Positions 6,184 to 20,000 of a DNA stretch of 20,000 nucleotides are shown here, piece after piece; positions within the stretch are counted from its first letter, which is position 1; each line of letters begins with the position of its first letter. The position numbers and the translations under genes were made by a program. The DNA lies in assembly GCA_964535955.1 (NCBI GenBank), contig CAZHVK010000006.1, positions 60,179-80,178 on the forward strand, written 5' to 3'. The stretch is from an uncultured Methanosarcinales archaeon (GTDB taxonomy: Archaea; Nanobdellota; Nanobdellia; Woesearchaeales; CAXGTL01). The notes under the pieces are model-generated. The model made no database searches, had not been told where the DNA came from, and saw only the letters and a list, made by a program, of their open reading frames with translations.

Positions 6184-7821
6184 CTAATACATCCCCTGCC
6201 CTGGCATTCCACCCATTCCACCAGGCATGCCTTGTGGTGCTGCACCTTCTTTTGAACTTCCACCAGCAATAACATCATCAATTCTAAGTATCATTACAGC
6301 AACCTCTGATGCAGACGAAATAGCCTGTGTCTTTATCTTCAAAGGTTCAATCACACCAGCTTGCCAAGCATCAACAACTTTACCAGAAAACACATCAATA
6401 CCAGCCCACTTTTGACCCTGATCATGTGCAGCTTTCATCTCAGTCAGAACATCGATTGGATCAAGTCCAGCATTCTCAGCCAAAGTCACAGGAATTATCT
6501 CAAGAGCCTCTGCAAACTTTTGAACAGCAAGTTGCTCCCTACCACTTAAAGAATCTGCAAACCTTCTTATCTCTTTAGAAACCTCAACTTCTGTTGCACC
6601 TGCTCCTGCAACTATTTTGCCATTCTTCATAGCAGCTGCAAGATCACCAACAGCATCATCAAGTGCTCTTTTAATTTCATCTATGACATGTTCTGTTCCA
6701 CCTCTAACAAGAATAGTAACAGCTTTAGGATTCACACATTGTTTAACATAAGTCATTTCTTCATCACCAACCTTCATCTCTTCAACAATTCCTGCATTAC
6801 CAAGATCTTTTTCACCTAAATCTTCTAGATTAGTAACAATTGTTCCGCCAGTAGCACGAACTAATTTTTCCATATCAGATTTCTTTACTCTACGTACAGC
6901 ATAAATACCTTTTTTAGCTAAAAAGTGTTGAGCTAGATCATCAATTCCTTTTTGACAACAAATAACATTTGCACCACTACCAACAACTTTATCAACCATC
7001 TTACGCAACATTGCTTCTTCTTGATCTAAAAAAGCCTGCATCTGCATTGGATCTGTTATTTGTATCTTTGCATCTATCTCTGTATTTTTAATTTCAAGTG
7101 CAGAATCAATCAAAGCAATCCTTGCATTTTCAATCTTTTTAGGCATACCAACATGCACTCTTTCTTTATCAAGAATTATTCCTTCTACTAATTCAGTATC
7201 TTCTACAGATGCACCTGTCTTTTTCTCGATCTTTATATTATCAATATCAAGATCACCATTATCAAAGACATTTGAAACAGCCTTTACTGCAACATCTGCT
7301 AATTTACCTTTAGCATGTTCAGCACCTTTGCCAGTCATTGCTGTAATTGCAATTTTTTTTAATAAATCAATATTATCTCTAGAAACATCTTGTGCAATTG
7401 AATTCAAAACTTCTAATGCTTTTTCAGAAGCCTGCCTATAACCTTTTGCAAGAACAGTTGGATGAACATTTTTTTCTAAAAGTTCTTCTGCTTTCTTAAG
7501 TAATTCACCAGCTATAACAACAGCTGTTGTTGTTCCATCACCAACTTCATCTTCTTGTGTCTTTGCAACTTCAACAATCATCTTTGCTGTTGGATGTTCT
7601 ATCTGCATTTCTTCTAATATTGTCACACCATCATTAGTAACAGTAACATCATTCAAAGAATCAACTATCATCTTATCCATACCTTTTGGTCCTAATGTTG
7701 TTCTAACTGTTTCAGCTACCAATTTAGCAGCCATTATATTTGTTTTTTGAGCCTGTCTACCTTGAGACCTTTGTGTGTCTTGTGGTAAGATGAATATAGG
7801 CTGTACATTATTATTTGTCAT
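6184..7821 (-). CDS. thsA: Thermosome subunit (group II chaperonin)
   Basis: Motifs [34 protein letters not shown] and LAENAGLD, plus a GGM-rich C-terminal tail. Confidence 0.98.
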
Positions 7822-7946
7822 ATTATCATTCCCCCTTAATTTTAAGTAAAATTAGCCTTAATTAATGTGTTTGGGAATTTCTTCCTATATATAAAGATTG
7901 CTGTTTATCCAATCACTATTTCTTTCAAAACAAAATACAACAAGAA

Positions 7947-11774: not shown

Positions 11775-14396
11775 ATGTCTTACAAACATGAACTCAAACC
11801 TAATAAAGCAGCTTTTATTTTTTCTAATTTTGTAAAGAGGGCTATTAGTTTAATAATATACATAGTTCTTCTTTTCTTTATATTTGGAGCATCAATCTCA
11901 GGATTACTAGCAATCCCAATCTTATTAATCAGTTGTCTGTTTTTAGCAGGATTTTATTTATTTTATATAATCATAAGATACAAAAAAGAAAAATACATTT
12001 TTCTAGAAAACAAGATCATTCACAAATCAGGAACAATATTCTCTGACAAAGAAACAGAATTAGTTATTAAAAACATAACACATGTTTCTATGAGCCTCCC
12101 ATTTATTGAGAACAAATTATTTCAAACAGGGAACATTGCAATAGAATCAGCAGGAAGTGCTGTAGCAGAAGTATATTTATCATCTATAGAAAATCCTAAA
12201 AAATTCTATGAATATGTAGAAGGATTAATGAAACATAATGGATTTAAACTAAAAAAACCAAAATTAATACAACAAGAACAACCAAACAGCTTAGGAGTGT
12301 TTTTTGAAGTATTTAAAAATGCAATTATGATAATATTTTTTATCTTTATATATATTTTTTCATTTCTTGAAGATCAAAAAAACCCTATTGACCTTGTAAC
12401 ATCAAATCTGAACATTGTTGTTATTGGAGCAGGATTAATCTTAATTTGGCTGTTCTTTAGAGGCATATTTAATTTCCTTGATTTAAAAAACAGAACATAC
12501 AATATTTACTCAGACACAATCACATATAATGAAGGTTTTCTTACAAAGAACTTCTCCTTCATACCAATTGAAAACCTTGCAGATGCTGCCATAACCCAGA
12601 CAATGATTGACAGAATCTTTGGTTTATATGATGTAAAGATAAGCTGTCCAGGTGTTGGCAACCAAATCCTATTTAAGAACATGGAAAATGGTCAAGAATT
12701 AGAAAAAAATATTGACAACCTGATCTCCAAAAGCAAATCATTAATAGGAAGAAAAACACAAACAAAAGCAGAAAAAACAAGACAAGGAAAACAAACAAAA
12801 CAAGAAAAACAAGAAAAAATCACTAAACAAGCAGCTTATCACAAAAATCTAAAAAAAGATACTAAGTTTACAGCAGAATATAGAATTAATGGAAAAAGAT
12901 TATTAATTCCATTAACAGCATATTTTGTAATATTCTTTTTATTTATTCTTATTCCAATTACTATTTTGTATTTTGTATTTATGTCAACAGATTCATTTGC
13001 AATATTCTCAGCTTTAGCATACACAATTCCAACTTTTATTACTATGATACTTATTACAGTACCATTAATATTTATATGGGCAATAACTTTTATAGCAAAC
13101 ATTATTAAAATCAGAGCAACAAAATACCTTGTAAAACCCAACAGTTTTGAAGAACAATACAAATTCTTAAAAACCAAGAACAAAGAATTCAACATAGACA
13201 AGATAACAGGCATTGTGTTTAAAGAAAGTTTCATAGATAAATGGTTTAACACATGCAGTATTCATTTTTGGTCAATTGGTTCTCATGAAAGTATAAATTT
13301 CATAAGCATAGACAAATCAAAAGGTTTATACAAAAAGATATTAGATAAATTTGGAATAAAACAAAATCAACAGCAGAATCAACAACAAAAAATTAAACAA
13401 CAGAAAAATAAACAGCAAACAATCTATAAAATGGATTCTAATTTTGATGTACTGACAATGTTTAAAGCAACATTGCCTTTTACACTTTTAATTTTCCTCA
13501 CAATATTATTTTTTATATCATCTGCATTTTTGCACTCATTAATGTTAATATTTCCATTCTTAATCATTCTAACATGCCTTGCCCTAATTATATACAGAAT
13601 CTATTATTATAAAAGATCAAAAATGGATTTTTACAAAGATTATGTTTATTTTACAAGAGGAATATTTTTTAAAGACTATTTCTATGTTTTATATGATAAT
13701 ATCAAAGACATTACCACAGTCAAATACCCTTTCTCAAACTTAGGCTCTGTTAGATTCAATGTAGCAGGAGAAAAAATGGTCCAGCAGCAGCAAAGAAGAG
13801 GTTTATTCCAAAAAAAACAACAAACAGTTCTTGCATCTTATTACTTTAAAATAAATTATATTGATGATATTGATAATAAAGATGAACTGATTGATCTAAT
13901 ATTTTATAAAAGGCCTGGCAAAGAAAAGATTGCACAAATAGAAAAACATATAACAGACTATGCACCAAAACCAATCCTTACTGCAAAGCCAGACATAATA
14001 ACAACTCTATTATCTAGTTTTTCTGTGATCATAGTGTTGGGTTTTTCTTTTATGATACCACTTGTCATGTTAATGATCTTTGTGCCCTTATTCATTATTC
14101 CAATACTAGCAGTATTTCTTCTTATAGCATTGTGGCTAATTTGGGCTATCAAAGTCAGATCATACATTATCCAATCTTATAGAGTATTAGCAAAATCAGG
14201 AATATTCTACAAAAGACAAACATCCATAGTATTCAATAAAATTGACCATATTAATTATTATCAAGGAATGCTTAACAAGATGTTTAATAATGGCACAATC
14301 ACAGTAAACACAACAGGCAGTAGTTTACCAGAATTAACAATAATGAATATTCCTAATTATAAGAAATTCCATGATGTTTTGAAAAAGTATTATTGA
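11775..14396 (+). CDS. YdbS/YdbT-like membrane protein with five bacterial PH (bPH_2/DUF304-like) domains
   Basis: Five repeats of a TM hairpin plus a Y....i....G.f......i....I..i......f.....G.i.i.taG pattern, e.g. KSGIFYKRQTSIVFNKIDHINYYQGMLNKMFNNGTITVNTTGS. Confidence 0.82.
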   Translation: MSYKHELKPNKAAFIFSNFVKRAISLIIYIVLLFFIFGASISGLLAIPILLISCLFLAGFYLFYIIIRYKKEKYIFLENKIIHKSGTIFSDKETELVIKNITHVSMSLPFIENKLFQTGNIAIESAGSAVAEVYLSSIENPKKFYEYVEGLMKHNGFKLKKPKLIQQEQPNSLGVFFEVFKNAIMIIFFIFIYIFSFLEDQKNPIDLVTSNLNIVVIGAGLILIWLFFRGIFNFLDLKNRTYNIYSDTITYNEGFLTKNFSFIPIENLADAAITQTMIDRIFGLYDVKISCPGVGNQILFKNMENGQELEKNIDNLISKSKSLIGRKTQTKAEKTRQGKQTKQEKQEKITKQAAYHKNLKKDTKFTAEYRINGKRLLIPLTAYFVIFFLFILIPITILYFVFMSTDSFAIFSALAYTIPTFITMILITVPLIFIWAITFIANIIKIRATKYLVKPNSFEEQYKFLKTKNKEFNIDKITGIVFKESFIDKWFNTCSIHFWSIGSHESINFISIDKSKGLYKKILDKFGIKQNQQQNQQQKIKQQKNKQQTIYKMDSNFDVLTMFKATLPFTLLIFLTILFFISSAFLHSLMLIFPFLIILTCLALIIYRIYYYKRSKMDFYKDYVYFTRGIFFKDYFYVLYDNIKDITTVKYPFSNLGSVRFNVAGEKMVQQQQRRGLFQKKQQTVLASYYFKINYIDDIDNKDELIDLIFYKRPGKEKIAQIEKHITDYAPKPILTAKPDIITTLLSSFSVIIVLGFSFMIPLVMLMIFVPLFIIPILAVFLLIALWLIWAIKVRSYIIQSYRVLAKSGIFYKRQTSIVFNKIDHINYYQGMLNKMFNNGTITVNTTGSSLPELTIMNIPNYKKFHDVLKKYY

Positions 14397-14413: not shown

Positions 14414-15739
14414 TTACTCTTTCAACACACCATAACCAATCAATCTAAACCTTTGCCCAATCAATCTAGAAATAGTAATCCTAGCACCATAACCAACACA
14501 AATAGGCCTTTTCAAAGCACAAACAACCAACTTCTTCTTAATATTCATAACAACGCCAACTGTTGCTGCACTATTTACATTCAGCATCAAAGTTTCATGT
14601 AATTTAATAGGTTTAACTTCTAAATCTTCTTTACTACCAACAACCCTATCAAGCAAATGTACTTCTAATTTAAATTCATTCAAAACCAAAGGCAATTTAC
14701 CAACACGACCAGCAACATTTCCTGTTAAAGAATCAGACTTAACAATACTAGGATCTAAACCAGTCAACACACCTATAGAACCACCTGGTACAACTTGTTT
14801 AACACTCTCATTACCAGTCTTAAGACCAGTAATCTTTGCTGTGATAGATTTCCATTTTTGTTGATTCCTTTCTTGATAAACCATGCCAGGCTTTATCTCA
14901 ATTTCATCTCCAACTGCAAACTTTCCCCTGAACAATGCTCCACCAAGTACACCACCAACCATTTTCAAAGGATTACTTCCAGGCTTATTTATGTCAAAAC
15001 TTCTAGCAATAAACATTAATGGATCTTTATCAAGTTTTCTTTCAGGAGTTGGTATGTGTTTTTCAATAGTTTCAATCAAAACATCCACATTAGCTCCTTG
15101 CTGCGCACTAATAGGAACAATTACAGCATTTTCATAAATAGTTCCTTTAACAAACTCTTTTATTTCTTTATAACTTTCAAGAGCTCTTTCCTTAGAAACA
15201 ATATCAATTTTATTTTGAACAATAATAATTTTTTTCAATCCCATTATTTCAAGTGCCATTAAATGCTCTCTTGTTTGAGGTTGAGGACATTTTTCATTTG
15301 CTGCAATAAGTAGTAAAGCTCCATCCATAATAGTTGCTCCAGACAACATTGTAGCCATTAATGATTCATGTCCTGGTGCATCTACAAAACTAATTTTTCT
15401 TAGAAATTGACATTTACTTTTACATTTAGGACAAATATCTTTAGTAGTAAAACCAGGTTTACATTTAGGACATTTATAAAAAGAAGTATTAGCATAGCCT
15501 AATCTTATAGTAATGCCTCTTTTAAGTTCTTCAGAATGAGTATCTGTCCATTTACCAGACAATCTTTCAGTTAGAGTAGTTTTACCATGATCTACATGAC
15601 CAACTAAACCTAGATTTATTTCTGGCTGAAAAGATTTTTCTGATACCTTCTCTGATACCTTCTCTGATACCTTCTCTGATACCTTCTCTGATCCTTTTGT
15701 TGATTCTTTTGTTAGCTTGCTTGCTTTTTTCTTTCCCAT
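14414..15739 (-). CDS. eif2g: Translation initiation factor 2 gamma subunit (aIF2-gamma)
   Basis: QPEINLGLVGHVDHGKTT, RGITIRLGYA, Zn-knuckle CPKC..CPKC, DAPGHE, QNKID, PISA and RSFDINKPG. Confidence 0.98.
   Translation of the reverse strand: MGKKKASKLTKESTKGSEKVSEKVSEKVSEKVSEKSFQPEINLGLVGHVDHGKTTLTERLSGKWTDTHSEELKRGITIRLGYANTSFYKCPKCKPGFTTKDICPKCKSKCQFLRKISFVDAPGHESLMATMLSGATIMDGALLLIAANEKCPQPQTREHLMALEIMGLKKIIIVQNKIDIVSKERALESYKEIKEFVKGTIYENAVIVPISAQQGANVDVLIETIEKHIPTPERKLDKDPLMFIARSFDINKPGSNPLKMVGGVLGGALFRGKFAVGDEIEIKPGMVYQERNQQKWKSITAKITGLKTGNESVKQVVPGGSIGVLTGLDPSIVKSDSLTGNVAGRVGKLPLVLNEFKLEVHLLDRVVGSKEDLEVKPIKLHETLMLNVNSAATVGVVMNIKKKLVVCALKRPICVGYGARITISRLIGQRFRLIGYGVLKE
15639..15692. 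repeat. 12-bp in-frame tandem repeat TCTGATACCTTC x4.5 encoding (SEKV)n in the aIF2-gamma N-terminus
   Basis: Read directly from the sequence and the translation. Confidence 0.9.
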
Positions 15740-15996: not shown

Positions 15997-16118
15997 AACT
16001 GTAAACATTACATACAGGCATATATAAACATATATTAAATTAGATATATAAATGTTTTTTATATGGTATATATACATTATATGTCTACACTAGAATAATA
16101 AAAATATTGGTTAATTAA

Positions 16119-16890
16119 TTATTTTTTCTCTGGCTCTTTTGCTTCTTTCTTTGCTTCTGCTTTTGCTTCTTTCTTTGCTTCTGCTTTTGATTCTTTCTTT
16201 ACTTCNNNNNNNNNNNNNNNNNNNNNNNNNNNNNNNNNNNNNNNNNNNNNNNNNNNNNNNNNNNNNNNNNNNNNNNNNNNNNNNNNNNNNNNNNNNNNNN
16301 NNNNNTGCTTTTGCTTCTTTTTTAACTTCAGCTTTCTCTGTTTTTTCTTCTTCTGTTTTTTTCTTCTTTACTTCTGCTTTTGCTTCTTTCTTTACTTCTG
16401 CTTTTGATTCTTTCTTTACTTCTGCTTTTGCTTCTTTTTTAACTTCAGCTTTCTCTGTTTTTTCTTCTTCTGTTTTTCCTTCTTCAAACAAATTTTCTTT
16501 ACCAATTTTCAAAATTTTAAGATTAATTTGAGAAATTTTATCATGAATTATTTCACCACAAACAGTCTTTTTTCTTCTAAGACCTTTTCTTTTAGGCTTA
16601 TCTTTTTTCTTTTTCTTTGTACGCCCCTTTGTTTTTCCTCTAAAACCAATTGATTTAAAAGTCAATATTTTCTTTCTCTTTATACCAGGAACTCCTTTTC
16701 TCATAGGAAAACCACAATAATCAGAACCACCAGTTACTACAAACTCATAACCAGAAAAACCAAAATCTTCTCCTACAATCTTTTCCCCTACCTTTTTATG
16801 AAGAAAAAAGCTAGCATCCTTATCTTTAACTTCTTTTTGTACTGTTTTACCTGATTTCGGGTCTGATATAATTAATTTAAAATCCACCAT
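16119..16890 (-). CDS. rps6e: 30S ribosomal protein S6e with a long repetitive K/E/A-rich C-terminal extension (spans an assembly gap)
   Basis: MVDFKLIISDPKSGKT, VTGGSDYCGFPMR, GLRRKKTVCG and ISQINLKI. TATA at 16916-16923 lies 33 nt before the ATG at 16890. Beyond the 100-N gap the repeat frame reads EVKKESKAEAKKEAKAEAKKEAKEPEKK* with the stop at 16119-16121, so the ORF-track frame after the gap is probably wrong. Confidence 0.93.
16135..16480. repeat. Imperfect 24-bp coding tandem repeats (KAEVKKEA/S) plus a duplicated KTEEEKTEKAEVKK block
   Basis: Repeated TTCTGCTTTTG(C/A)TTCTTTCTTT(A/G)C units on both sides of the N gap at 16206-16305. Confidence 0.85.
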
Positions 16891-16990
16891 CTTATATAGT
16901 AGTTTTAAACGTGTATTTATAAATATGTCGGAAATTTTTATGAAAGAAACCAAAAAATCTCAGCTTATATTAAAAATAAACCAATCAACC

Positions 16991-17713: not shown

Positions 17714-18211
17714 TCATATCAAAAAATACATAACAACAGGTATCAACAAACAACCCATTGCATGACTACGACTCACACCCAAAAGTGGAGGCAACATTCC
17801 AATAAAAGTAGCAACTACTAAAACCAAAATACCATAAAAACCTGCGAATAATAAAACCATTCCACTAACTAAACCAATTATCGAATAACAAAGTACCTTA
17901 TAATTAATCTTTGGAATTACTTTAGCAAACACTTTTGTTATTTGCAAAGCTAAAAATGTTGCAATGCAGCCTGCAATCAAAGCACACAATAAAAAAACAA
18001 TCATCTCAGTAATAGTAATTGTTTTCACAATCTCCATAACTGCAATTATTGCTCCGTTTCTTGCTTTTTCAAGAGCATAAAGAGTAACAATAGAAAATAA
18101 AAAGTTCACAGTGTTTATTCCACCGATCAATATCATGAATGCATGAGCACCAATGTCTCCAACTAAATTCATTGCAATGATTGCAGCATGTGCTGAACCA
18201 AGTCCAGGCAA
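17714..18211 (-). pseudogene. 3' fragment of an archaeal TctA/DUF112-family (tripartite tricarboxylate transporter-like) membrane gene, interrupted by an integrated element
   Basis: The fragment begins at an internal conserved motif, LPGLGSAHAA...LIGGINTVNF...ARNG...GVSRSHAMGCLLIP, seen in roughly 400-aa archaeal homologues. The frame upstream reaches TGA at 18245-18247 with no N-terminal half. Confidence 0.72.
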
Positions 18212-18252
18212 GTGCCACCCTAAAAATATCAGTTTTTCTAAATTTCAAAAAA

Positions 18253-18296
18253 GCGCTACAAATGCGCTACAAAATTTATATAGGCGTTTGTACTGC
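18253..18296 (+). promoter_or_regulatory. Element promoter: TATA box flanked by GCGCTACAAA repeats
   Basis: GCGCTACAAA at 18253-18262 and 18264-18273, TTTATATA at 18275-18282, and an inverted 8/10 copy TTTGTACTGC at 18287-18296. SD GAGGTGA at 18304-18310. Confidence 0.6.
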
Positions 18297-18316
18297 TAAA
18301 AATGAGGTGAGAAAAA

Positions 18317-18745
18317 TTGATAAACATTCCAAAGCTTGAGAAACACAAGATAGAGACAGCAAAAAATCAGTCAACAGACTTTTTTGTTAAGAGAAAAATA
18401 GTTGAAGAACTCATCAACAAGACTTTTTCCAAGATGAGTGGTGATGAAATCCTTACAATTTTATGCAGATTAGAGAATTATTGGGTTAATAACAGAAAGC
18501 ATCAGCTAACTGTAAGGGAAAGTATCTTCTATAATATGCTTATTGAGAATGATTTTATCCCATGCACAGTATATAGATGGTTCTACAAGACAATTATTCC
18601 TAGTGATGTGTCTGAAAGGATTAAAAAACATAGAATAAGCAAAAAACAGTTTGAAAGGATGAAAGATAATATGGCTAAGTGGCAAAGAGTTAACCAAGAG
18701 TTCAAATTAGTTGAACAAGGCAAAGAGATTATAAGGGGGTTATGA
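18317..18745 (+). CDS. Small ParB-HTH-like protein, paralogue A
   Basis: TTG start with SD GAGGTGA. YNMLIENDFIPCTVYRWFYKTIIPSDVSERIKKHRISKKQ aligns with the next ORF and resembles the ParB/Spo0J HTH region. Confidence 0.7.
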   Translation: MINIPKLEKHKIETAKNQSTDFFVKRKIVEELINKTFSKMSGDEILTILCRLENYWVNNRKHQLTVRESIFYNMLIENDFIPCTVYRWFYKTIIPSDVSERIKKHRISKKQFERMKDNMAKWQRVNQEFKLVEQGKEIIRGL

Positions 18746-19155
18746 AAATGGATGATAAATCATTTGCAATACTTAAAAATCCTGTAGCAAGTTATGTTGA
18801 TAAGATTAAAATAGTCAGAGAAATGATATTAAAAGAGATGCCTCAACTAGAAAAAGAAAATCTTAGAGGAATGTTCTCCCATATTGCACATTATCATTAC
18901 AAAAAATCTTTAATAGTAACTGAAACTGAGATGCAACTCTATGATCTGTTATTAAAGAATCAGTTAAATCCAAACACAGTATATAAATGGCTTCTCTTAT
19001 CAAAGATGAGTACGGATTTGAAAAGATCAGTGAATCAAGGTAAATTGACCCAGAAACAAGCCTTGAGATTAAATGCTGAAAGAAAACAGAAAAAATCCAT
19101 TAATGTTGGGTTACAAATAATAAATGAAGCACGAAATATAATGCTTGAATTGTGA
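18742..19155 (+). CDS. Small ParB-HTH-like protein, paralogue B
   Basis: ATGA overlap with the previous stop. YDLLLKNQLNPNTVYKWLLLSKMSTDLKRSVNQGKLTQKQA. Confidence 0.75.
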   Translation: MKMDDKSFAILKNPVASYVDKIKIVREMILKEMPQLEKENLRGMFSHIAHYHYKKSLIVTETEMQLYDLLLKNQLNPNTVYKWLLLSKMSTDLKRSVNQGKLTQKQALRLNAERKQKKSINVGLQIINEARNIMLEL

Positions 19156-19165
19156 GGTGGAAACA

Positions 19166-19969
19166 ATGTATAATACAAGTTCAGTTCATTATGGCTCAAT
19201 GAGCAAAAGACAAAAGATTCCAAATACTTTCAACAAACAACAACTTGCAAAATTAATCAACGTAATAGACAATCCAAAGATAATGATTGCTGTATTGCTT
19301 GGATTCTTTTGTGGTTTAAGATTAGATGAAGTCTCAAGCCTTAAGATAGAGAACATTGATTTTGAAAGAAGAAGGCTTAAGGTTGTTGATAGTAAGAATA
19401 CTAATAGAAGGTTTAATGAATATGGTAAAGATAGATATGTGCCAATTCCTAAACAACTGATGCCTATATTAGAGAAATGGAAAGAGCTTATAGGGAATAA
19501 AAAATATTTATTACCATCCATTATGAAACCAGGCTCACATATAGGCAAAAAAAGTCTTTATCAAAGTTATCATGAATATTTAGATAAAGCAGGACTTTTG
19601 ATAAAAAATGGAGAAGATTCACTAGGAAGACCAAGATACAAATATTATTTTCACACTTTGAGACATAGCTATGCNNNNNNNNNNGAAGAACAGGGTGTAG
19701 CAATAGAAAAGATATCAAAGTTACTTGGTCATGCAGATATTGGGACAACAATGATCTATACACACATAAGTGATACAAAAGCACAGCAAAGTGTAGATGA
19801 GGCATTTAGTTCGCCATTTGGGCTTAAGAAAAATGTGATGCCTCAGAGTAATAATGTGAAGTCACCTGAGGAAATATTAGGTGTGAGATTAGCAAATGGT
19901 GAAATATCACCGAAAGAATTTCATCAAAGAATGAACTTATTAAGGGGTAATCAAAATTACATAGGATGA
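19166..19969 (+). CDS. Tyrosine recombinase/integrase: catalytic domain only, plus a C-terminal SHOCT-like motif
   Basis: Catalytic residues R (CGLRLDE), K (DSK/GKDR), HxLR (HTLRHSY), H (LLGH) and Y (TTMIY). SD GAGGTGG precedes the ATG at 19166. Tail SPEEILGVRLANGEISPKEFHQRMNLL. The 10-N gap keeps the frame. Confidence 0.92.
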   Translation: MYNTSSVHYGSMSKRQKIPNTFNKQQLAKLINVIDNPKIMIAVLLGFFCGLRLDEVSSLKIENIDFERRRLKVVDSKNTNRRFNEYGKDRYVPIPKQLMPILEKWKELIGNKKYLLPSIMKPGSHIGKKSLYQSYHEYLDKAGLLIKNGEDSLGRPRYKYYFHTLRHSYXXXXEEQGVAIEKISKLLGHADIGTTMIYTHISDTKAQQSVDEAFSSPFGLKKNVMPQSNNVKSPEEILGVRLANGEISPKEFHQRMNLLRGNQNYIG

Positions 19970-20000
19970 ATAATAAAAAGAAATACACCGAAAAAGAGTT
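19966..20000 (+). CDS. Start of a fourth, translationally coupled ORF (MNNKKKYTEKE...), truncated by the window edge
   Basis: ATGA overlap with the integrase stop; frame open to the end of the window. Confidence 0.5.
   Translation, partial: MNNKKKYTEKE

Follow-up and report, generated by a model that had tools for sequence, protein, structure and literature searches.

A candidate two-piece tyrosine recombinase, with a separately encoded helper family, at the left end of a putative archaeal integrative element

Near the right-hand end of a 20,000-nucleotide stretch of archaeal DNA (contig CAZHVK010000006.1 of assembly GCA_964535955.1; the whole stretch is hereafter the window), three tightly packed genes on one strand encode two small helical proteins, named here A and B, and a tyrosine recombinase, named Int. 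The cassette lies beside the truncated 3' part of a gene for a TctA-family permease, and an open reading frame (ORF) with HNH-type repeats begins at the end of Int. Through a comparison of this locus with related archaeal loci, we propose with moderate confidence that a small integrative element resides in the TctA permease gene and that the cassette forms its left end and integration module. The features discussed below are listed in Table 1.

Table 1. Features of the window, with positions counted from its first nucleotide; L001 is the window's own copy of the locus.
Feature	Position	Strand	Description
Membrane protein gene	11775-14396		873 amino acids; four bacterial PH (bPH_2) domains
aIF2-gamma gene	14414-15739		Starts with SEKV repeats
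S6e-like ORF	16111-16953		Long repetitive Lys/Glu-rich C-terminal extension
Masked run of 100 N	16206-16305		Inside the C-terminal extension of the S6e-like ORF
TctA-family permease gene, 3' part	17714-18211	-	Codons ~235-403 of 403; PF01970 positions 251-422 of 423
CAGTTTTTCTAAA stretch	within 18190-18300		Region also holds the junction and the two GCGCTACAAA copies
CCAGGC	18204-18209	+	Where TctA similarity ends; candidate crossover/core region of the left attachment site
Two direct GCGCTACAAA copies	18253-18273	+	11 nucleotides apart, adjoining the TATA-like box; candidate A/B sites (operator or arm-type)
TTTATATA	18275-18282	+	TATA-box-like, ~35 nucleotides upstream of the A start; putative A-B-Int operon promoter
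A	18317-18745	+	142-amino-acid helical protein; more diverged helper paralogue
B	18742-19155	+	137-amino-acid helical protein; paralogue nearer to the single-copy helpers found elsewhere
Int	19166-19969	+	267-amino-acid tyrosine recombinase; catalytic domain and C-terminal tail, without a core-binding domain
Masked run of 10 N	19675-19684	none	Inside Int, residues 170-173; reading frame intact
SHOCT-like two-helix tail of Int	19865-19933	+	Residues 234-256; weak PF09851 match
HNH-repeat ORF	19967-20000, runs off the window	+	127-amino-acid protein; full ORF at L001 1811-2194; ATGA overlap with Int

The integrase and its upstream helper genes

Int begins with an ATG located 10 nucleotides past the B stop codon and behind the sequence GAGGTGG. 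Residues 22-203 match profile positions 3-170 of 172 of PF00589, the catalytic domain (E=1.2e-21; 77.6 bits, cut-off 27.1), and the protein aligns to positions 89-261 of 263 of the archaeal XerA model (NCBIfam XerA_Arch; E=3e-29; 102 bits, cut-off 220). Because the catalytic domain begins at residue 22 and the XerA alignment only at position 89, the chain has no room for a core-binding domain. This bears out a first-pass annotation of the same DNA, which had placed the start of the catalytic domain within about 20 residues of the N-terminus and had credited the recombinase with all of its catalytic residues. R52, K77, H163, R166, H189, and Y198 are indeed invariant in 60 aligned family members, including the window protein, and the masked run inside the gene covers none of them. 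In the AlphaFold2 model of Int (predicted local distance difference test score, pLDDT, 86.7), no structure precedes residue 24, where the first helix begins. The best Foldseek matches are the integron integrase 2a3v (E=1.7e-11) and XerA 5hxy (E=7.4e-11); matches span ~200-240 alignment columns of chains of 270-320 residues, with the catalytic parts aligned.

A word-indexed protein search with the integrase returned 183 matches, 120 of them listed. No SAM-like N-terminal Pfam domain was present in the best 87 of the 183 relatives, which range from 164 to 355 amino acids in length. Records for relatives of the module proteins are titled Woesearchaeota, Nanoarchaeota/Nanoarchaeia, and Pacearchaeota, and a few titles name other taxa.

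Beyond the catalytic domain, the AlphaFold2 model places helices at residues 234-243 and 249-266. This tail had been described as SHOCT-like on first inspection, and a PF09851 match is present (E=0.0015); at 18.7 bits it falls under the gathering cut-off of 27, and "SHOCT-like" is the better name. Such tails reach E<=0.01 in 12 of the 60 family members only, the best at E 0.00038 and all with weak scores; the tails of other integrase family members resemble coiled coils. The paper that describes SHOCT includes PF00589 among co-occurring domains, and reports that the authors' own test gave no support for oligomerisation (PMC3581485).

A starts with a TTG positioned 6 nucleotides behind GAGGTGA, and A and B overlap in the sequence ATGA. 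BLASTP aligns the two proteins at 21% identity over 136 columns (E=3e-12) and one profile matches both, which identifies them as paralogues; identity to other members of the family is mostly higher for B than for A. The paralogy and tight coupling claimed for the two upstream proteins are therefore upheld, as is the coupling of Int to the downstream ORF, while the label "helix-turn-helix" (HTH) given to both finds no family match. Relative to L002, a syntenic locus 83% identical to the window, the ratio of nonsynonymous to synonymous substitution rates (dN/dS) comes to 0.11 (A), 0.16 (B), and 0.12 (Int). These values indicate purifying selection on real genes, and the HNH-repeat gene is likewise under purifying selection.

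The AlphaFold2 model of A is all-helical (pLDDT 76.6), with helices at residues 21-36, 42-57, 66-77, 82-92, 95-103, and 109-141. Conservation across the family is strongest in the helix pair 66-77/82-92 of this model and in the helix that follows, and for this reason we call the segment, as a model-based reading, HTH-like. In a language-model Atlas, B falls among unnamed archaeal clusters, and a cluster with a ParB-type HTH scores 0.89, a sub-threshold lead; PF17762 (ParB-type HTH) matches neither A nor B. The family, hereafter the helper family, returned no match in Pfam, NCBIfam, PHROGs, or PDB sequences. A word search with A retrieves A itself and one protein of 82% identity only, which gives a false look of rarity. 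A HMMER search of 1.84 billion representatives with the helper-family alignment recovers 231 proteins at E<=0.001, of which 180 reach E<=1e-10; with few exceptions they are 70-210 amino acids long. Judged by sequence, A and B thus appear to belong to an undescribed protein family of 231 representative clusters without annotation.

Association of the helper family with the integrase

Related loci were collected by a genome scan with the integrase alignment; 354 stretches matched, 327 were confirmed as relatives, and 80 loci (designated L001 and onward) were kept. They were fetched by the integrase alone and the helper was not part of the query. L001 represents the window's own copy: a contig of 3412 bp, 99% identical to the window end where the two overlap. 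When six-frame ORFs were compared with a profile of A and B, a helper-family ORF was found to adjoin the integrase, on the same strand and directly upstream, in 79 of the 80 loci, so that homologues of Int usually come with one helper. Two helper copies occur in L001 and L002 only. The predicted order of paralogue A, paralogue B, and integrase is thus confined to these two loci, and the three- or four-component module proposed in the first-pass annotation reduces to a conserved unit of two components.

Three further lines of evidence bear on a physical association. First, a natural fusion protein of 375 amino acids (P0247; one of the 150 listed helper representatives) joins a helper (residues 2-128), a PF00589 domain (143-313), and a similar SHOCT-like tail in a single chain, in which the domain order repeats the gene order helper-integrase. 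Second, complex models of Int (the L001 copy) with B scored 0.78, 0.78, and 0.80, and the best of three controls scored 0.40. The complex-score mark is reached by 116 of 157 solved complexes and by 2 of 215 mismatched pairs, and is a rough guide here, where custom alignments were used. The complex-structure prediction that the first-pass annotation had called for with both helpers was thus favorable, and its scope is B.

The model runs have at least 91% of contacts in common, and pLDDT of the partner is at least 82. The modelled interface sets residues 119-137 of B, the end of the long C-terminal helix, against residues 24-44 and 97-108 of Int. Third, the modelled contacts coincide with conserved positions in both families: on the integrase side, W105 is conserved in 45 of 45 sequences, L27 in 40 of 45, and P37 in 39 of 45; on the helper side, hydrophobic residues occupy B positions 126, 133, 134, and 137 and are kept in A, which retains the C-terminal consensus of the family. 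The helper C-terminus adjoins the integrase N-terminus in the model, which fits the fusion seen in P0247. Together, the fusion and the conserved modelled docking surface point to a physical complex of the helper with Int.

The one locus without a helper-family ORF, L032, carries an unrelated 96-amino-acid ORF in the same place (7568-7858). This ORF ends in sequence resembling the C-terminus of B.

A second, much shorter tyrosine-recombinase ORF (169-278 amino acids; E ~1e-11 to the family profile) occurs in 14 loci (L026, L033, L034, L040, L041, L052, L053, L054, L059, L063, L071, L075, L076, and L078). It lies within a few kb of the main integrase on the downstream side; 13 of the 14 loci have it on the opposite strand, and L059 has it on the same strand. 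Stand-alone relatives of 156-166 amino acids are also present among the listed integrase matches.

The TctA junction and the surrounding DNA

The TctA part aligns to residues 235-400 of a 402-amino-acid TctA protein, beginning exactly at LPGLGS. Against the intact 403-amino-acid protein P0272 it shows 88% identity, over residues 234-403 of that protein; intact TctA proteins of 403 amino acids and 88-93% identity are found in the protein collection. It begins at the junction, contains no ATG, and has an in-frame stop 11 codons upstream. The same gene is cut at the same position (codon ~235) and in the same orientation in L002 and L003, and both share CCAGGC at the junction.

In other relatives, which target the 5' end of TctA, the break follows ACAGGC or a near variant of it. 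A displaced TctA 5' fragment stands upstream of the helper in 16 of 67 loci (motif background, 0.006 per window), in closer relatives of Int with one helper; these fragments comprise ~20 codons ending in T-G and lie 100-140 nucleotides upstream of the helper. L011 is the clearest case. An exact 30-nucleotide direct repeat occurs there at 7396 and 11850. The displaced TctA fragment contains one copy, and an intact TctA gene, 4.45 kb downstream, contains the other within its codons 11-20; the element replaces the 5' end that it displaces. In L006, the two sides of the element share only ACAGGC. Ten assemblies hold two or three loci each among the 80, and cargo varies by locus, including nucleotidyltransferase/HEPN pairs, NikA-like genes, and winged-helix proteins.

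Transfer RNA genes were considered as a general target and rejected, with no tRNA in the window and only L020 among 60 loci having one within ~100 nucleotides of the helper. Long repeats as end markers were also set aside; control comparisons likewise gave repeats of 26 nucleotides (L054) and 39 nucleotides (L075), and only the L011 repeat, which lies in TctA, is informative. The exact repeats of L054 and L075 join the region just upstream of the helper with sequence further left.

The interval between the junction and A contains the two GCGCTACAAA copies and the TATA-like TTTATATA, which may serve as the promoter of an A-B-Int operon. GCGCTACAAA occurs twice in the window against 0.33 expected, and 9 of 200 shuffles reach two. 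The pair and the TATA-like box are also found upstream of A in L002 and at L001 3359-3379, and several relatives have paired xxxxTACAAA-like repeats of their own ahead of a TATA-like box. For L010, L016, and L018, comparison of the region upstream of the helper with the region downstream of Int places the longest shared repeat no more than 10 nucleotides past the stop codon of Int, and a TATA-like box again follows it. The pair at L001 3359-3379 stands 33 nucleotides before the contig end, and L001 begins only 56 nucleotides to the left of the junction with TctA; repeat or element boundaries may lie at these breaks in the contig. In L055-L079, 60-150 nucleotides upstream of the helper, a leader conserved at the nucleotide level runs between a TTTATA box and the helper start, with a TCACT-N-AGTGA-type palindrome immediately before that box. 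Rfam returned no match in the 8 searched loci with this leader.

The HNH-repeat ORF encodes two homing-endonuclease-associated repeats (PF18780; E=5.5e-32, two stretches) and no nuclease domain; the L003 version has three. Relatives occur in 4 of the 80 loci (L001, L002, L003, and L024), and the ORF is a cargo or accessory gene rather than a conserved part of the module.

The window as a whole is low-GC archaeal DNA (~23-38% GC). Its housekeeping genes encode a thermosome subunit, aIF2-gamma, and ribosomal protein S15 and include the S6e-like ORF, the L002 relative of which matches Ribosomal_S6e. An Rfam search of the window and nine loci gave zero matches.

Explanations of the cassette and comparison with known systems

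We lean toward a small, DPANN-type archaeal element that uses a two-piece recombinase, with the helper duplicated in the lineage of the window. Int would contribute the catalytic domain and a short helical tail only. A separate helper of ~130-150 amino acids would dock, by its C-terminal amphipathic helix, on the first helices of the catalytic domain, at the point where the core-binding domain would join the chain in ordinary recombinases, and would provide DNA binding through its conserved HTH-like segment. The helper thus probably supplies the DNA-clamping front half of the enzyme in trans. Following duplication of the helper gene, A and B would have kept the docking helix and come to differ elsewhere. 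DNA binding by A and B, their requirement for recombination, GCGCTACAAA as their sites, and a role of the Int tail in tetramer assembly are all expectations that we infer from this arrangement. To call the helper a detached N-terminal domain is a functional reading and makes no claim of homology.

Several observations weigh against this proposal. Searches of Pfam and NCBIfam gave no convincing HTH family match for A, B, or 75 helper members, the nearest being PF17762 in one of the 75 at E=0.012, and Foldseek with the A model reached no better than E=5.9 in PDB and E=0.63 in BFVD. The idea that the helper is a diverged SAM-like core-binding domain found no support (hhalign against Xer/integron-integrase proteins, probability 0.4%). 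Among the 120 listed family integrases, 14 have an N-terminal extension of their own of ~75 amino acids (P0011, P0030, P0033, P0047, P0049, P0054, P0056, P0059, P0061, P0066, P0067, P0069, P0070, and P0071), and at least four loci (L025, L036, L073, and L074) combine long integrase ORFs of 356-371 amino acids (putative starts) with an upstream helper. A fused helper domain was tried as the identity of the extension in the integrases of 330-355 amino acids and rejected (hhalign probability 4.4%). Catalytic-domain-only recombinases such as FimB and FimE are said to work without a partner, so the missing domain does not in itself call for a helper. The P0247 fusion is a single cluster representative and could reflect a frameshift error, and the docking is a model prediction, made with B as the one helper. 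Tandem repeats upstream of the helper are barely more frequent than in controls (21 of 69 loci; 272 of 1380 control windows), and the GCGCTACAAA copies are accordingly regarded as no more than candidate sites for the helper. L011 has direct repeats at both ends, one in the target gene, and the window shows the left junction only. Finally, compared with L002, the cut TctA part has a dN/dS of 0.095 (dS 1.15), and aIF2-gamma has 0.14. Such strong constraint counts against a long-fixed disruption, because a dead fragment should drift; it suggests that the insertion is reversible, that the half-gene is expressed, or that a co-diverging element inserted independently and recently.

The strongest alternative, which we still consider rather unlikely, is that A and B do no more than regulate the element or set the direction of recombination and that Int binds and cuts DNA alone. 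As small DNA-binding proteins, they would turn the promoters of the element down or up, or would bias integration against excision in the way of SNJ2 Orf2/Orf3 or phage excisionases. The GCGCTACAAA pair adjoining the TATA-like box upstream of A, and recurring with such a box 3.26 kb downstream in L001, speaks for this account; the shared repeats and TATA-like boxes just past the Int stop in L010, L016, and L018 fit it as well, as does the existence of FimB/FimE-type enzymes without an N-terminal domain. There is also a precedent in the archaeal virus SNJ2, where small proteins co-transcribed with the integrase are reported to raise integration and to be dispensable for excision (PMC5861418). 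Yet accessory factors are usually patchy in distribution, and homologues of the SNJ2 proteins Orf2 and Orf3 are reported from 5 of 38 related elements (PMC5861418), against a helper in 79 of 80 loci here. The P0247 fusion and the modelled, conserved docking surface point instead to a complex with Int. The roles of regulator and subunit are not mutually exclusive.

It is improbable that the cassette is a resident excision switch in TctA, kept by the host and selected for a host function, with the element excised or retained under regulation. Synteny between the window and L002 runs from the host genes through the TctA part and the A-B-Int cassette to the HNH-repeat gene, after which similarity stops. 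Protein identity is 65-79% for host genes and 77-83% for cassette genes, and divergence from L002 is similar in the two sets. A switch would accommodate this shared history, the constraint on the TctA part, and the existence of closely similar intact TctA proteins. However, the integrase clade is multi-copy in the 10 assemblies noted above, sits in different neighbourhoods with varied cargo (nucleotidyltransferase/HEPN pairs, NikA-like genes), and is accompanied by target-site repeats typical of mobile elements, and no developmental or regulatory signal is known here.

Least probable is a reading in which Int and the helper are not an integrase but an atypical relaxase pair, nicking an origin of transfer in the manner of MpsA and MpsB of SGI1. 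In its favor, SGI1 MpsA has a tyrosine-recombinase fold and is reported to need a separately encoded small protein, MpsB, that resembles a core-binding domain (PMC6414798), and the elements of L006 and L011 contain NikA-like genes, with scores below cut-off. Against it, none of the six catalytic residues varies, mpsA-mpsB has its genes in the opposite order, and PF13495 does not match the helper. In addition, the 4.45-kb L011 element is bounded by direct repeats and encodes no other recombinase ORF, so that the relative of Int there must do the integration.

As a rule, a tyrosine recombinase is one chain whose two domains clamp the DNA between them. If the proposed two-piece recombinase is real, a widespread natural form that divides the clamp between two genes would show how specificity and catalysis can be uncoupled, would give access to the mobile elements of DPANN archaea, which have hardly been studied, and could make a recombinase retargetable by swapping a 130-amino-acid subunit. 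The comparison also names TctA as a recurrent integration target and brings together an unannotated family of 231 representative clusters. A bolder version, which we put forward only tentatively, is an obligate two-subunit tyrosine recombinase whose DNA-recognition half is exchangeable and represents a new fold family; A and B could then aim one catalytic subunit at two different half-sites, an asymmetry like that of XerC/XerD that would arise on the DNA-binding side, and a clade of small DPANN elements would use the system to enter conserved TctA motifs.

Literature searches on the DPANN/Woesearchaeota family and on split recombinases, mostly judged at the level of search results, returned no description of this system. 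The first-pass suggestion of an undescribed module holds to that extent; multi-gene archaeal integration modules (PMC5861418) and a split recombinase fold (PMC6414798) are both in print.

The nearest archaeal parallel is the haloarchaeal pleolipovirus SNJ2, compared here by description only. Its tyrosine integrase is reported to be co-transcribed with two small upstream genes, which overlap one another as well as the integrase gene and promote integration, one of them encoding a predicted DNA binder (PMC5861418, PMC8371274), and the window resembles this layout in the overlap of A and B, the 10-nucleotide gap between B and Int, and the common strand, with putative co-transcription. The SNJ2 helpers are an unrelated pair, a coiled-coil protein and a MarR-like winged helix, whereas A and B are related to each other as paralogues within a single undescribed family, and neither MarR nor any other Pfam family matches them. 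The helpers also differ in incidence, as set out above, and SNJ2 targets a tRNA gene rather than TctA.

SGI1 provides a bacterial parallel, in that a recombinase-fold protein is paired with a small helical stand-in for the N-terminal DNA-binding domain, there encoded on a bicistronic message (PMC6414798). MpsB matches the SAM-like family PF13495; in A, B, and 75 helper members, PF13495 gave no match at E<=10, hhalign against PF13495-carrying proteins gave 0.4%, and A and B match nothing. In addition, the activity proposed for the SGI1 pair is that of a relaxase for conjugative mobilisation in bacteria, whereas the evidence assembled here points to integration.

Single-chain recombinases share the catalytic core. 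XerA and the integron integrases, the nearest to Int by sequence and fold, have a similar catalytic domain and the same catalytic residues; relative to XerA, Int lacks the core-binding domain, scores 102 bits against a cut-off of 220, carries an extra tail of ~60 amino acids, is multi-copy, and is tied to mobile elements. FimB and FimE are short tyrosine recombinases without the N-terminal domain. They flip a promoter-bearing segment with the aid of bending proteins of the host, and we know of no dedicated adjacent partner gene for either. Int scores far below the NCBIfam invertase models (NF007370, 21.3 bits, cut-off 221; NF007371, 16.9 bits, cut-off 222).

Multi-gene recombination modules are likewise known from Tn554 and the recombinase-in-trio elements (PMC8138268). 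These carry several tyrosine recombinases in tandem, each with its own core-binding domain, and simple tyrosine recombinases are described as a core-binding plus a catalytic domain (PMC8138268); the cassette of the window has one recombinase and non-catalytic helpers. In summary, the system shares the logic of the SNJ2 and SGI1 precedents and differs from them in the helper family, the near-universal presence of a helper, the missing integrase domain, and the target.

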